Assembly (NCBI GenBank): GCA_018656065.1
Contig: JABHZY010000010.1
Location: forward strand, 4,638 to 68,637
Length of the DNA stretch: 64,000 nt
Direction of reading: 5' to 3'
DNA from: Candidatus Komeilibacteria bacterium
Lineage (GTDB): Bacteria; Patescibacteriota; Patescibacteriia; UBA1558; GWA2-36-10
Shown: positions 29,327 to 54,720 of the stretch, one piece after another
Layout: every line of letters starts with the position of its first letter
Position numbering within the stretch: the stretch's first letter is position 1
Program-made: the position numbers and the translations under genes
Notes under the pieces: generated by a model
Seen by the model: the letters and a program-made list of their open reading frames with translations, nothing else
What the model was told of the DNA's origin: nothing
Databases searched by the model: none

Positions 29327-29355
29327 TTGACAAAAGCACCTATAAAACATAAAAT
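29327..29355 (+). promoter_or_regulatory. consensus sigma70-type promoter of GC-rich islet A
   Basis: TTGACA (29327-29332), 17-nt spacer, TAAAAT (29350-29355). Confidence 0.6.
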
Positions 29356-29383
29356 ATATACGGACACTATCAAAGGGGTTGAT

Positions 29384-29656
29384 ATGAAGTCCGTAACAAT
29401 ACCCAAACCTATTGCCGATAAGGTAACCTGTGGCCATTGTATCTCGGCCTTTGCTAATCCTGACACTGCTACACACCTTGAACGCACTCGTCAGTCGCAC
29501 TACTCAGTGCATGAAGGATTGCAATATCCGCAGACAACTAATGAACCTCGCAGGTACCCCATCAGCTCGTCATCGGGTCACTACCTCATGACTGAAGGCC
29601 TGTCTCCACAAGGAGACAGGCCGCCAATTTTTTACAAAACAAAAAACCGCCCGTAA
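29384..29656 (+). other. GC-rich islet A: 90-codon ORF (MKSVTIPKPIADKVTCGHCISAF...) or a roughly 290-nt structured RNA; coding status unresolved
   Basis: Markedly more G+C than the flanks. Own promoter. The GGGG SD-like motif 5 nt before the ATG sits in the loop of a nested 5' hairpin (ACGGAC..TATCAA-AGGGG-TTGATA..GTCCGT). The stop codon lies inside the terminator loop. The protein is low-complexity apart from one CGHC motif. No homolog recognised. Confidence 0.35.
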
Positions 29657-29667
29657 GGGCGGTTTTT
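29641..29667. terminator. bidirectional intrinsic terminator (ends islet A on + and the rplA operon on -)
   Basis: A6-CCGCCC-gtaa-GGGCGG-T5. Confidence 0.85.
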
Positions 29668-29677
29668 AAAATAAATT

Positions 29678-30364
29678 TTAGTTTATACTTACTTTAATAC
29701 TGGGTCCCATTGATGAAGAAAGAAAAAGTGACTTAATATAAGTACTCTTCAAACTAGATGGCTTAGCTTTTTTCAAAGAATCTACAAAAGTCTCAAAATT
29801 TTCAATTAACTTAGCTTCATCAAATGATACTTTACCAATAGTCAAATGAACATTAGCAGTACTATCATTTTTATAAGATACTTTACCTTTTTTAAGTTCG
29901 CCAATCATTTTAACTAAATCTGGACCGATAGTACCAGTCTTTGGATTAGGCATTAAACCTTTTTGTCCAAGCACTTTAGCAATCACTGCTAATTTTGGCA
30001 TCATTTCTGGTACAGTCACCGCAATATCAAAATCTGTTTTGCTAGTTTTTTTAATTTCAGCAATTAACTCTTCACTACCAACTAAATCACCACCAGCATC
30101 TTTAGCTTCTTTCATTCTATCTTCTGGTACAAAAGCAGCTATTTTAACAGTCTTACCAGTGCCATGTGGAAGTACCACGGAAGCTCTGATAATTTGATCA
30201 CCTTTCTTTGGATCAATTCCTAATCTAGCATGCACCTCTATAGAAGCATCAAATTTTACTACACTAGTTTCTTTAACTAATTTAATAGCTTCAGCAATTG
30301 GATAAATCTTATCACTTTCGATTTTAGATCTAGCTTCTTTTAATCTTTTACTTACTTTTGACAT
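29678..30364 (-). CDS. rplA: 50S ribosomal protein L1
   Basis: Typical L1 sequence (VEVHARLGIDPKKGDQIIRASVVLPHGTGK). Confidence 0.95.
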   Translation of the reverse strand: MSKVSKRLKEARSKIESDKIYPIAEAIKLVKETSVVKFDASIEVHARLGIDPKKGDQIIRASVVLPHGTGKTVKIAAFVPEDRMKEAKDAGGDLVGSEELIAEIKKTSKTDFDIAVTVPEMMPKLAVIAKVLGQKGLMPNPKTGTIGPDLVKMIGELKKGKVSYKNDSTANVHLTIGKVSFDEAKLIENFETFVDSLKKAKPSSLKSTYIKSLFLSSSMGPSIKVSIN

Positions 30365-30372
30365 AATTATTT

Positions 30373-30421
30373 GTTATTACGAGGTTCAAACGCTCAGCCG
30401 ACTAGCTAAGCTCCCTCAAAA
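30373..30421 (-). promoter_or_regulatory. 49-nt structured leader element, copy 1 (immediately upstream of rplA); candidate L1 autoregulatory site
   Basis: Exact copy of 30859-30907. The RNA AUUUUGAGGGAGCUUAGCUAGUCGGCUGAGCGUUUGAACCUCGUAAUAA folds as GAGG/CCUC outer helix, asymmetric internal loop, and 7-bp helix GCUUAGC/GCUGAGC with a hexaloop. Confidence 0.45.
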
Positions 30422-30424
30422 TAT

Positions 30425-30850
30425 TTATTTTTCCGTTTTAACTCCCATTTGACGAGCAGTACCAGCAATTATCTTTTTTGCTTGTTCTACATCATCAGTA
30501 TTCAAGTCTGGCATTTTAGCTTCAGCAATTTCAGTAAGTTGTGCATCGCTTAATTTAGCAACTTTTTCTTGCAGTGGACTACCAGAACCTTTTTTTAGAT
30601 TTAGCTTTTTCTTAATCATGTCAGATGCCGGAGCAGTCTTGGTCACAAAATCAAAAGAGCGATCTTCATAGATTGTTAATTCTACAGGTACTACTTCACC
30701 CATACGTTCTTTTGTAGCTGCATTAAATTGAGTACAAAAAGCTTGAATATCTAAACCATGGGGTCCTAAAGCTGTACCAACTGGAGGGGCCGGAGTAGCT
30801 TTACCAGCTTGGATTTGCAGCTTAACAATTTGTTTTACTTGTTTTGCCAT
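30425..30850 (-). CDS. rplK: 50S ribosomal protein L11
   Basis: [32 protein letters not shown]. The start was trimmed to the ATG at 30848-30850. Confidence 0.93.
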
Positions 30851-30858
30851 ATTATTTA

Positions 30859-30907
30859 TTATTACGAGGTTCAAACGCTCAGCCGACTAGCTAAGCTCCC
30901 TCAAAAT
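30859..30907 (-). promoter_or_regulatory. 49-nt structured leader element, copy 2 (immediately upstream of rplK)
   Basis: 49/49 identical to 30373-30421. Confidence 0.45.
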
Positions 30908-30910
30908 TAT

Positions 30911-31456
30911 TTATGTTTTCTTAATTTGTAAAAAATCTAATTCAACTGGAGTTTCACGACCAAACATAGAGACAAGCACCTTGGCCTTTCCTCTGGCTTC
31001 ATCAACTTCTGAAATCTTACCTTCATATTCTTTAAATGGACCATCGGTAATCTTAACCATTTCACCAACTTCAATATCAACTTTAAATTCTGGCTCTTCA
31101 GCTCCCATTCTTTGCATTAATTGTTTTATTTCTGCTTCAGATACAGGAGTAGGTGTAGTACCAGAACCCACAAAACCAGTTACGTTTGGAGTATTCCTAA
31201 CTACATACCAAGAAGCATCAGTTACTACCATGGATACTAAAACATAGCCTGGAAAAATCTTTTCTTTAACAGTCTTTCTTTTTCCATTTTTAATTTTAAT
31301 CTTAGTCTCGGTTGGAATAATAACATCAAAAATCTTATCTTCCATATCCATAGATTCAATACGTTGTCTCAAATTACGACAAACATTTTCTTCATAACCA
31401 GAATAAGTATGTAATACATACCACCTTCGACCCTGTTGCGCGGTTTGTTTTGGCAT
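30911..31456 (-). CDS. nusG: transcription termination/antitermination factor NusG
   Basis: NGN domain (RWYVLHTYSGYE) plus KOW (GEMVKITDGPFKEYEGKISEVD). Confidence 0.93.
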   Translation of the reverse strand: MPKQTAQQGRRWYVLHTYSGYEENVCRNLRQRIESMDMEDKIFDVIIPTETKIKIKNGKRKTVKEKIFPGYVLVSMVVTDASWYVVRNTPNVTGFVGSGTTPTPVSEAEIKQLMQRMGAEEPEFKVDIEVGEMVKITDGPFKEYEGKISEVDEARGKAKVLVSMFGRETPVELDFLQIKKT

Positions 31457-31472
31457 ATGTTTATAATTAAAA

Positions 31473-53625: not shown

Positions 53626-53652
53626 TACTTTTTTGAGGGATAGCAAGTAATA

Positions 53653-53681
53653 TTGACAAAATAGCAAAAATATGCTATAAT
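53653..53681 (+). promoter_or_regulatory. islet F1 promoter (shared module)
   Basis: TTGACA (53653-53658), 17 nt, TATAAT (53676-53681). The surrounding roughly 40 nt is about 90% identical to 54226-54262. Confidence 0.7.
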
Positions 53682-53785
53682 GCTTTATTACTTAATTACG
53701 GGATAGATTTGTTTTTGTTAATAAATAGCTGAAATTAACCTGTCTCGTAATTTCCGAAACGACCGCAAACTGAAAAGGAAAAGCC

Positions 53786-54055
53786 ATGTCTAAATGGACG
53801 TCCTGGTTGCACGACCTGCTCCAGCATATCCGCAGCAATGAGCTCGACGAGGCGGCCAACATCTTGGCCTCTTGCTTGCCGGGCGAACACTTCGAGACAA
53901 ATGACCACGAAATGGCCAAGCTGATGTTTGGCCAGGAATTGGTTGTTGAGAACGCCAAGAACCTCTGGCCGCTGATGAAGCCCTTCCTCATCCCCCGCCG
54001 CAAGGTCCATAAGGAGGTCCTCAACTATCTGCGGAAGTGCGGGTGGCAGCTGTAG
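53786..54055 (+). CDS. islet F1: 89-aa helical Cys-containing protein, paralog of F2
   Basis: GC3-rich codons (CTG CTC CAG CAT ATC CGC AGC...). It aligns to F2 through W-L-x2-L-x-H-[IL]-x2-N-[ED]-[LI]-x2-A-A-N-[IM]-L-A-x-C-L ... N-A-[KQ]-x-[LI]-W ... G-W-[QR]. Confidence 0.7.
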   Translation: MSKWTSWLHDLLQHIRSNELDEAANILASCLPGEHFETNDHEMAKLMFGQELVVENAKNLWPLMKPFLIPRRKVHKEVLNYLRKCGWQL

Positions 54056-54093
54056 CCACTCAACGAACAACAACGCGCCGGTGTCGGACACCA

Positions 54094-54122
54094 CCCTTGA
54101 AAAACTTCAGAGCTATGACTAG
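54094..54122 (+). pseudogene. fossil 3' end of a third F-family gene
   Basis: CCCTTGAAAAACTTCAGAGCTATGACTAGG versus the F2 coding 3' end CCCTGAAAAAGCTTCAGAGCTACGGCTGG (54600-54628). It lies after the F1 stop codon. Confidence 0.55.
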
Positions 54123-54190
54123 GACATCTCCTAGCTACTACCCCGTTCTTTAATCAAAATGGTCTTAAAAAAATACTCAACATAAGTGCA

Positions 54191-54214
54191 AAGAGCCTGA
54201 CCAGCTCTTTTTTG
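54191..54214 (+). terminator. islet F1 terminator (shared module)
   Basis: AAGAGC-ctgacca-GCTCTT-TTTT. It is part of a roughly 65-nt 3' module (54148-54217) repeated at 54651-54712. Confidence 0.8.
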
Positions 54215-54228
54215 TTTTACCTTAAATA

Positions 54229-54257
54229 TTGACAAAATAGCTAAAATATGCTATGAT
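54229..54257 (+). promoter_or_regulatory. islet F2 promoter (shared module)
   Basis: TTGACA (54229-54234), 17 nt, TATGAT (54252-54257). Confidence 0.7.
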
Positions 54258-54325
54258 TATTTATTCTAAGATTGACTTAGAACGTACCAAAAGCCCCCTC
54301 AAGCTAAGAAAAAATAGAGGTGAGC

Positions 54326-54640
54326 ATGAAACACCACACCACTATCACTACTTTGCGTCACTGTAGATATTGGCTGATCTCGGCACTGCGCCATCTACAG
54401 GATAACGATATTGGTGCCACTGCCAACATGTTGGCCTGCTGCCTTCTCTACAAGCCCACTGATCCTCCCCACCATCTCACCCTTTGCATGAAGTGGGAGG
54501 CTCGCATCTTCCAGTACCCTCAGGTGTTGGACAATGCCCAGGAAATCTGGGAACTCATCAGGTCAGAGGTCCTCCTAGTAGAGGATTCTCACAACAGTAC
54601 CCTGAAAAAGCTTCAGAGCTACGGCTGGCGTATCAGATAG
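54326..54640 (+). CDS. islet F2: 104-aa helical Cys-containing protein, paralog of F1
   Basis: SD AGAGG 5 nt before the ATG at 54326. GC3/C3-rich codons. Ends ...LKKLQSYGWRIR. Confidence 0.7.
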   Translation: MKHHTTITTLRHCRYWLISALRHLQDNDIGATANMLACCLLYKPTDPPHHLTLCMKWEARIFQYPQVLDNAQEIWELIRSEVLLVEDSHNSTLKKLQSYGWRIR

Positions 54641-54684
54641 CCACCAACTGAATGGTCATAAAATAAGCACTCAACATAAGTGCC

Positions 54685-54708
54685 AGGAGCCTGACCAGCT
54701 CTTTTTTG
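54685..54708 (+). terminator. islet F2 terminator (shared module)
   Basis: GAGC-ctgacca-GCTC-T6. Confidence 0.8.
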
Positions 54709-54720
54709 TTTGTATCAAAA

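Follow-up and report, generated by a model that had tools for sequence, protein, structure and literature searches.

We analysed a 64,000-nucleotide (nt) stretch of a Candidatus Komeilibacteria bacterium (contig JABHZY010000010.1, assembly GCA_018656065.1, positions 4,638 to 68,637 of the forward strand; hereafter the window), in which short GC-rich units, A to F2, interrupt an AT-rich chromosome at four spacers between core genes. The interpretation we favour, with somewhat better than even confidence, is that these four loci are variable hot-spot spacers holding a clade-restricted pool of autonomous cassettes that are exchanged by recombination and translated in dependence on Shine-Dalgarno (SD) sequences. 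The units are autonomous, deviate in composition, carry SDs on B1, B2, C and D and are patchily present among relatives; B1, C and D have positional orthologs, and the F locus is a mosaic with sharing between lineages. Phage morons are autonomous promoter-ORF-terminator units (ORF, open reading frame) that lie between conserved genes of lambdoid and other phages. What is new here is the finding of moron-like, recombination-exchanged cassettes in a chromosome of the candidate phyla radiation (CPR; Patescibacteria), combined with a split in translation signals and a persistent GC-richness, and the pattern is robust and recurs across the clade. The tiny genomes of these bacteria are often assumed to be static, and little is known of how they acquire and express accessory genes. 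The units suggest a modular route of gene gain and swap by promoter-cargo-terminator cassettes in hot-spot spacers, and their clade-specific ORFans and small RNA (sRNA) candidates, including a predicted secreted two-cysteine protein, are candidates for interaction with hosts or competitors.

GC-rich autonomous units in core-gene spacers

The unit features are as follows; matches to sigma-70 promoters were scored out of 12 in the region 29-64 kb, GC3 is GC at third codon positions, and SD strength is the duplex energy (kcal/mol) against ACCUCCUUA, the organism's own 16S 3' end lying outside the window.

29327..29355, plus strand: unit A promoter, TTGACA-17-TAAAAT (11/12)
29362..29632, plus strand: unit A transcript of ~270 nt, candidate structured sRNA (minimum free energy, MFE, -88.1 kcal/mol, z -4.9)
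29597..29667, no strand assigned: unit A terminator (29597-29622 and T-run), then a bidirectional hairpin (29642-29667) common to rplA
40594..40717, minus strand: unit B 3' region, a GC stem (40691-40717) without a U-run and a tail to the next gene (40192-40593)
40744..40998, minus strand: B2 ORF, 84 amino acids (aa), acidic; SD GGAGG at 41006-41010 (-10.0)
41017..41325, minus strand: B1 ORF, 102 aa, an ORFan; extended SD AGGAGGTGA at 41330-41338 (-11.6)
44727..44756, minus strand: C terminator, GAGACCCC...GGGGTCTC and T-run, then junction motif TTTTTGTCAAAATTAT, found after the E terminator as well
44769..44936, minus strand: C ORF, 55-aa acidic protein (SD -11.4)
44937..45150, minus strand: C leader RNA with three terminator-like hairpins (45145-45160, 45093-45110 and 44966-44983)
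45151..45198, minus strand: C mini-ORF MNNIVNKKVAKKNKV, 15 codons as read from the sequence, stop codon in the loop of hairpin 45145-45160
45208..45236, minus strand: C mini-ORF/leader promoter, TTGACA-17-TAATAT (10/12), conserved in relative L093
45256..45285, minus strand: D terminator, 11-bp stem and T-run
45320..45739, minus strand: D ORF, 139 aa, signal peptide, conserved Cys29 and Cys139; SD GAGGAGG at 45747-45753 (-13.4); GC3 0.81
45815..45843, minus strand: D promoter, TTGACA-17-TATAGT with TG (11/12)
45870..46070, minus strand: unit E transcript of ~190 nt, candidate sRNA (MFE -71.7 kcal/mol, z -4.3)
46077..46105, minus strand: unit E promoter, TTGACA-17-TAATAT with TG (10/12), 76% similar to the D promoter over 38 nt
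53653..53681, plus strand: F1 promoter, TTGACA-17-TATAAT with TG (12/12)
53786..54055, plus strand: F1 ORF, 89 aa, helical, Cys-containing; GC3 0.83, weak SD
54056..54217, plus strand: F1 3' mosaic (its parts are given below)
54229..54257, plus strand: F2 promoter, TTGACA-17-TATGAT with TG (11/12)
54326..54640, plus strand: F2 ORF, 104 aa; GC3 0.65, SD -7.1
54685..54711, plus strand: F2 terminator, within a 51-nt repeat (54661-54711) that is 90% identical to the F1 copy (54167-54217)

Background GC in the window, where most genes lie on the minus strand, is ~0.34 (1-kb windows). In 300-nt windows GC climbs from ~0.30 to 0.47 at 29.35-29.65 kb and reaches 0.48-0.49 at 40.6-41.35 kb, 0.43 at 44.65-44.95 kb, 0.59-0.60 at 45.25-45.7 kb, 0.58 at 53.8-54.1 kb and 0.48-0.51 at 54.25-54.7 kb, and these islands are sharply bounded. 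A 150-nt scan of the full 64 kb found a single further GC patch of at least 300 nt, at 8491-8900, corresponding to Asp-rich TSP3 repeats within the native ORF 7972-8901; the profile and the scan together separate the segments at the four loci, as a preliminary description of the sequence had proposed. Codon usage separates them as well. Core ORFs (n=51) have a GC of 0.339±0.030 and a GC3 of 0.226±0.043 (maximum 0.33), against which the GC3 of the units (D 0.81, F1 0.83, F2 0.65, B1 0.41, B2 0.42, C 0.38, A 0.51) corresponds to z values of 3.5 to 14, with codon-adaptation z values of -2.4 to -9.2. D, F1 and F2, singled out earlier for their GC3-rich codons, have the GC3>>GC2 periodicity of real coding sequence, and D (GC2 0.51 versus 0.32 in core ORFs) has an amino-acid make-up as in high-GC organisms. 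The idea that all of the GC-rich ORFs are spurious was ruled out for D, F1 and F2 by this periodicity and by protein-level homologs, and for B1 and C by orthologs with conserved termini; it was accepted for A.

The source is a metagenome-assembled genome and contig breaks are frequent at unit edges, as might be seen if assembly or binning had joined GC-rich reads of other organisms chimerically into an AT-rich scaffold. Proteins of the window (NCBI MBT4209xxx, MBT4447xxx) were found on 5-37 contigs each from NCBI, JGI, ENA and Logan; the units are spanned by contigs of 12-107 kb in independent assemblies from these four sources, and the unit junctions are reproduced at 99.9-100% identity, on contigs of 12-56 kb, in independent ENA, NCBI and JGI samples. 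Because the same arrangement was assembled independently in several samples, the junctions are real and not an assembly artefact. Related species, moreover, carry orthologous units at the same sites, and we give the artefact explanation practically no weight.

The signals around the units indicate that each would be transcribed from its own consensus promoter and end at its own hairpin. All promoter matches of at least 11/12 in the region scanned belong to A (+29327), D (-45843), F1 (+53653, 12/12), F2 (+54229) and the native atp operon (-53625); the E promoter (-46105) and the C mini-ORF promoter (-45236), likewise described at the outset as textbook promoters, score 10/12. Intrinsic terminators are present for A, C, D, E, F1 and F2, and B, with a GC stem lacking a U-run, has neither a clear promoter nor a U-run terminator.

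The units also differ from the core in their translation signals. Core-gene SD energy averages -0.83 kcal/mol (n=51), equal to that of random positions (-0.95), and is -6 or lower in only 2/51 genes; the units have energies of -11.6 (B1), -10.0 (B2), -11.4 (C), -13.4 (D), -7.3 (A), -7.1 (F2) and -5.6 (F1). In a pattern scan of the 64 kb, the only genuine GGAGG-7-ATG starts were those of rpsU, B1, B2, C and D, which bears out the earlier view of an SD-less core with rpsU as an exception. The accompanying claim that six of seven ORFs carry strong to moderate SDs holds in part: SDs are strong on 4/7 unit reading frames (B1, B2, C and D), those of F1 and F2 are weak to moderate only, and the GGGG proposed as SD of A is doubtful. 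Since core genes are SD-less in 60 related Patescibacteria loci of every GC (0.30-0.62), the SD is a property of the cassettes, and extended SDs are retained in all positional orthologs of B1, C and D.

Relatives and signs of recombination at the unit loci

We fetched syntenic loci of relatives (L numbers) through atpD and uvrD. The closest relative with long contigs, L092 (uvrD 81% and atpD 90% identical), has spacers of ~100 nt at the B site and the C/D/E site, both empty, and the B site is empty also in L100; the units are therefore dispensable insertions, and not genes that all relatives conserve with ordinary functions. The same junctions have different content in L001, L002, L093 and L090. 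In L001, which lacks B, the spacer between a carbonic-anhydrase (CA)-like gene and uvrD holds a different GC-rich unit (GC 0.58, GC3 0.66) consisting of TTGACA-17-CATAAT, AAGGAGG, a divergent paralog of the neighbouring Pro_CA_2 gene and a terminator. At least three further units occupy this spacer in L002 and L099, where the cargo is a GC-rich CA-like gene, an sRNA-like unit (z -3.5) and a zf-AN1-like mini-protein; each again has a promoter, an SD and a terminator to itself. In a set of ten relatives, ORFs led by an SD are almost confined to these spacers and are GC-richer than their own genomes.

B1 has a positional ortholog in the dciA-downstream spacer of L093 (uvrD 77% identical to the window), with 35% identity (E = 3e-15) and the same SD; B2 is absent there, and the B 3' tail is partly conserved (nhmmer E = 5e-5). 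B1 and B2 match each other at E = 0.011 and may be distant paralogs. A word-indexed search of 5.8 billion clusters returned only B1 itself.

D has a homolog in the same CA-like-uvrD spacer of the L090/L091 species, where the order is CA-like gene, terminator, TTGACA-17-TATAGT, 5' untranslated region (UTR) hairpin, AAGGAGG, D homolog, terminator, uvrD; the promoter and 5'UTR of D can be aligned to L090/L091, and the N-terminus of UvrD there is ~88% identical to that of the window. An exhaustive HMMER search of 1.84 billion representatives found one true homolog, P0021, with 43% identity over the full length and in common with D an MRRFVA start, a Cys near the mature N-terminus and a ...H.TIM.C C-terminus; P0022 (1065 aa, highly repetitive) was disregarded as spurious, no matched stretch being reported. 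The word-indexed search gave only D itself and near-identical entries, and D matched no PDB sequence. D is therefore a real, fast-evolving protein, predicted from its classical signal peptide to be secreted, and its two conserved cysteines suggest a disulfide. AlphaFold2 models of D (pLDDT 33) and of F1 (pLDDT 54, five helices) were both too poor for a fold search.

The D orthologs have GC3 values of 0.81 and 0.89 next to uvrD at ~0.23-0.35, and the fraction of conserved residues with identical third bases is only 0.61 for D and 0.58 for uvrD, near saturation. A single old import should have ameliorated in that time and is insufficient to explain high GC3 in both orthologs. B1 and D have either been at their present sites since before the species split or been replaced there by homologous cassettes.

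These orthologs bear on two alternatives. Recent direct transfer of each unit from a GC-rich, SD-using organism, such as a physical host, would account for un-ameliorated GC and SDs: GC3 reaches 0.83, D has its high-GC amino-acid make-up, SDs are strong and the spacers of L092 are empty. CPR bacteria are, moreover, generally regarded as host-associated. Against such a transfer, D, B1 and F have no homologs outside Komeilibacteria-type contigs (1.84 billion representatives, searched exhaustively for D; 5.8 billion clusters, word-indexed), so that the higher-GC donor suggested in the preliminary description finds no support. Furthermore, the spacers that hold D, B1 and C in the window hold them also in species with flanks near synonymous saturation, so that recent import finds no support as the only cause of the deviant composition; both lineages keep SDs and high GC3, and the promoters are AT-rich and mutually related. 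GC-rich Patescibacteria were considered as SD-bearing donors and judged unlikely because none of the 60 related loci has SDs on its core genes. Overall, we regard direct transfer as doubtful.

The second alternative is that the units are native, lineage-specific genes whose GC is actively maintained by GC-biased gene conversion (gBGC) at recombination hot spots or by selection on mRNA or translation. The D orthologs, high in GC3 despite only 43% protein identity and amid flanks with third-position identity of 0.58, speak for it, as do abundant recombination at the loci and the clade restriction of the families. However, a shift in GC3 from 0.23 to 0.83 with sharp boundaries is, to our knowledge, far beyond any reported effect of gBGC in bacteria; the mRNA folding z values of D (-2.6) and F1 (-2.7) are about that of a native gene (-2.2), so that selection on RNA structure is not supported as a cause of GC-richness; and B1, B2 and C are only moderately GC-shifted. 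We consider active maintenance unlikely. The retention of GC3 ~0.85 in orthologs amid GC3 ~0.25 poses a problem for compositional evolution.

The F locus shows sharing between lineages. The F1 and F2 proteins are paralogous (28% identity, E = 6e-11) and their promoters and terminators are 90% identical; the F1 promoter lies in a 41-nt block (53649-53689) that matches its F2 counterpart at 90% identity. As a whole the F1 unit is put together as a nested mosaic: an F2-type promoter, the F1 5'UTR and ORF, a degenerate terminator copy of the L081 type, residual C-terminal codons of the F2 type (54088-54138), and an F2-type 3'UTR and terminator (54190-54210). Window positions 53703-53995, the first two-thirds of the F1 cassette, are 98.6% identical to L081, yet the rmuC end of the L081 lineage is only 78% identical to the window. 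Beyond the shared part L081 has a different C-terminus and terminator, and upstream of it a GC-rich Usp-like gene. An alignment of the F proteins run against the 5.8 billion clusters retrieved only self and near-identical entries and one F1 variant.

Signs of modular recombination are seen elsewhere too. The likeness of the D and E promoters extends beyond the hexamers, and the same TTTTTGNCAAAATTAT junction follows the C and E terminators and, by eye, those of L090 and L093. In L091 the native Pro_CA_2-like gene (2-511) is chimeric, with an AT-rich 5' part (GC3 0.20) and a GC-rich 3' part (GC3 0.73) that by eye looks homologous to the C-terminal end of L001's GC-rich CA-like paralog. L089, which corresponds to window 35836-49340, is identical over ~11 kb including the units covered, bar one substitution in D, and has diverged by 1.8% in atpD and 13% in atpG; this indicates a recombination mosaic or a chimeric strain assembly in its core genes. 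With the units identical bar that substitution, dN/dS from L089 was uninformative. Many independent short contigs (L174-L181, L084-L088) contain nothing but the D unit or stop within, or at a border of, units A, D, E and F2 (at 29512-29622, 45218-45309, 45809-45915 and 54427). Assembly graphs are expected to break in this way at strain-variable modules, and the pattern suggests strain-level heterogeneity or shared modules at these very places.

We propose that each cassette would combine a promoter of the sigma-70 type and a 5'UTR with a cargo, followed by an intrinsic terminator and a junction sequence common to the cassettes. The cargo would be either a small fast-evolving ORFan protein (D predicted to be secreted, C acidic, B1/B2, and F1/F2 helical) or a structured sRNA (A and E are candidates). 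Cassettes would enter the spacers, replace one another and disappear through homologous or homology-facilitated recombination, with the conserved promoter and terminator/junction modules as anchors, plausibly fed by natural transformation. Their GC-rich coding sequence would come from a gene pool with a compositional equilibrium unlike that of the chromosome, either of foreign origin or kept distinct.

As an observation beside these loci, GC-richer SD-led ORFs lie next to native Pro_CA_2 in four relatives (L004 12508-13530, L096 4816-5856, L138 5023-5553 and L001 12523-13074); they weakly match carbonic-anhydrase-like families (CDCA, CsoSCA, Pro_CA_2) and constitute a recurrent second CA-like gene of deviant composition.

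Known mobile elements and translation of the cassettes

Like phage morons, the units are self-contained transcription units with small accessory cargo and a composition unlike their flanks, placed between conserved genes without disrupting them and present or absent at the same junction; B is the exception in lacking its own promoter and terminator. In contrast to morons, they sit on a streamlined CPR chromosome, flanked by pepA/rplA, the dciA/pheS side, the atp operon, uvrD and rmuC. Some of their cargo consists of sRNA candidates, several are kept at the same site across species, and they differ from their host in the translation-initiation signal (SD versus none). They are functionally moron-like, or like flexible islets, and are neither members of the phage moron family nor demonstrably phage-derived. 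The moron-like architecture first described thus stands with respect to autonomy, composition and presence/absence among relatives, and lacks support with respect to phage origin.

It might still be that the units are true morons, or degraded remnants of prophages or mobile elements, delivered by a higher-GC phage or plasmid that has since decayed. Promoter, ORF, terminator and deviant GC match the definition of a moron, and the cargo is of the small ORFan kind typical of mobile-element 'dark matter'. Protein C gave a marginal PHROG match (phrog_29356, E = 0.002), but this is to a low-complexity acidic peptide. Evidence to the contrary comes from several scans: the 30 core ORFs scanned contained no phage, integrase or transposase domain, in line with the preliminary description; D, B1 and F1 had no relatives among the 2.9 million contigs of IMG/VR; blastn found no match of the C/D/E region to INPHARED phages or of the F locus to PLSDB plasmids. 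Compared with Pfam, PHROGs and PADLOC, none of the unit proteins gave a meaningful match, and for B1/B2 and the other unit proteins Pfam and PADLOC gave no toxin-antitoxin or anti-phage defence match, no family reaching E<=0.1 bar chance-level ones. The units also sit singly in four separate spacers between core operons and have positional orthologs on related chromosomes, and we consider a phage or mobile-element remnant improbable.

With integron cassettes and flexible genomic islets the units share modularity, the tandem accretion of small cassettes at a fixed site, varying cargo and many ORFans. Integron cassettes are mostly promoterless and depend on the integrase IntI and the attI and attC sites. 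The units, on the other hand, have their own promoters and terminators, and their conserved modules are promoters and terminator junctions, with no known type of recombination site. No integrase domain was found in the scanned ORFs, attC was not evident, and no Rfam family reached the gathering threshold across the 64-kb window and three relatives. An island associated with a tRNA and integrase finds no support either, as there is no tRNA or tmRNA in the 64 kb and no flanking direct repeat at A or B.

The division between SD-less core genes and SD-led cassettes extends to one native gene.

21684..21929, minus strand: rpsU (bS21, 81 aa), with a strong SD, UGGAGGUG, at ~21937-21944, 7 nt before the ATG

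No other native gene in the 64 kb has a strong SD; rpsU also has its own TTGACT-17-TATAAT promoter. The bS21 of the window matches PDB bS21 chains weakly (E ~1e-3), and the genome has both uL1 and bS21. In Bacteroidia, the anti-SD (ASD) is sequestered by bS21, bS18 and bS6 and rpsU is autoregulated, and there, F. johnsoniae included, ribosomes without bS21 show a preference for translating mRNAs that bear an SD (PMC7797042, PMC9976891, PMC13000453); the presence of bS21 and of the ASD motif varies among CPR bacteria (PMC9297842). The window resembles the Bacteroidia in its core genes without SDs and in an rpsU with the strong SD UGGAGGUG, but belongs to a different phylum, and here extended SDs are found on a number of accessory genes in addition to rpsU, which in F. 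johnsoniae stands alone as an obvious case. By analogy, cassette translation would depend on SD-ASD pairing, unlike that of core genes, and cassette expression would be coupled to the state of the ribosome, namely its bS21 occupancy. That extended SDs are retained in B1, C and D orthologs of a clade with an SD-less core argues that they are used. A stronger version, which we advance as a long shot, would distinguish two translational classes, an SD-less AT-rich core and a small extended-SD regulon of rpsU and the cassettes, the latter exchanged horizontally but kept in position. This regulon would be read mainly by a sub-population of ribosomes with an exposed anti-SD, for example bS21-free ones. 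If this were true, control by a 'specialized ribosome', demonstrated to date in Bacteroidota alone, would extend to CPR and to a flexible gene pool, and the persistent GC-richness of the cassettes would mark a separately evolving class. The split in initiation signals mirrors the bS21 system of Bacteroidia and would connect ribosome heterogeneity with the expression of accessory genes in an uncultured phylum in a way that can be tested.

Several points weigh against a recombination-exchanged pool of SD-dependent cassettes. For each cassette only one or two relatives are known, and for A, E and B2 none, so that the F, D and CA-like examples carry most of the case for a 'pool'. L081, central to the F argument, is a 1-kb contig at ~1x coverage, with a flank comparison of 88 nt only. 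The GC of D may reflect either repeated replacement from a GC-rich pool or some force that maintains GC. C, with a modest GC excess, behaves as an ordinary conserved accessory gene. The database and window scans brought up neither a donor nor a vector or recombinase, and the exchange mechanism is one that we infer. Finally, the ASD motif is found in only ~48% of Parcubacteria 16S (PMC9297842), and SD function in the cassettes is thus a prediction.

Unit C, candidate RNAs and neighbouring features

The units are heterogeneous, and unit C departs from the others. L093 holds a complete C unit (promoter, mini-ORF, terminators, leader, AAGGAGGTG and acidic protein), so C is a conserved gene and no recent import. 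Its ortholog is a 50-aa acidic protein in which both termini are conserved (..FVxPEL[YH]KD), the ~300-nt leader is conserved (nhmmer E = 2e-31), and at the position of the mini-ORF MNNIVNKKVAKKNKV L093 has MIILVNKKIAKKNKA (4786-4833). In the window, hairpin 44966-44983 of the leader abuts the SD AAGGAGGAG (44942-44950). In database clustering, P0007 (493 aa) appears as 'representative' of the 90%-identity cluster of protein C (P0006, P0007, P0008); it is unrelated in sequence and was rejected as a clustering artefact.

From its layout, C is probably attenuator-controlled, and the leader is a candidate novel attenuator or cis-regulatory RNA. It shares with the leader-peptide attenuators of thr, phe and leu a 15-codon ORF, a stop codon in a terminator hairpin, further terminators and possible alternative pairings; the mini-ORF, the three hairpins and the possible pairings are kept in L093, a comparison of two sequences only. 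In distinction from those attenuators, the C leader scores far under Rfam thresholds (sub-threshold matches of the C/D/E region to Thr and Phe leaders have E = 0.14 to 4), its peptide is rich in Lys and Asn, and it precedes the gene of a 55-aa acidic protein with no assigned function.

Unit A, counted among seven ORFs at the outset, is like E more likely an sRNA than an ORF. Its nominal 90-aa ORF (29385-29657) has flat GC1/2/3 of 0.49/0.47/0.51 and reads through its own terminator, and gene callers called no gene there in any assembly; for these reasons we read A as an RNA gene, and the ORF is probably not coding. Both transcripts fold far better than shuffled sequences (z -4.9 for A, -4.3 for E). 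The predicted fold of E has a 13-bp closing stem round a multi-branch core, a small hairpin and a terminator (45877-45908). Rfam contains no family for A or E, the only matches being sub-threshold and terminator-like, and nhmmer found no relatives of either in 171 loci. Separately, promoter-to-terminator sRNA-like units are present in the CA-like-uvrD spacer of L093 (5266-5592, z -4.2) and L002 (12095-12405, z -3.5); neither has sequence similarity to E or A.

Other features of the window lie outside the units. A 2.0-kb AT-rich block (34669-36818) is bounded by 74-nt direct repeats (34669-34742 and 36745-36818, 85% identity) and contains ORFs 34728-35486 and 35504-36175 and a metallophosphoesterase (36180-36737), with no GC deviation. 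The 3' end of pheT forms the second repeat, and pheT directly abuts gyrB in L092, L093 and L001; the block looks like an insertion with target duplication. Within ORF 35504-36175 is a near-perfect 90-nt tandem duplication (35746-35925, 99% identity). The giant 3515-aa ORF 8926-19473 adjoins a 561-aa T4SS-pilin and Big_5 protein (19518-21203) and TSP3-repeat proteins (6813-8901), which together make up a surface/adhesion gene cluster. Lastly, an element of ~88 nt occurs in copies that are 92% identical (30346-30432 and 30833-30918) directly upstream of rplA and rplK; it has the core GGGAGCUUAGCUAGUCGGCUGAGCGUUUGAACCUC on the minus strand and no Rfam match, and may be a duplicated ribosomal-protein (L1/L11) leader.

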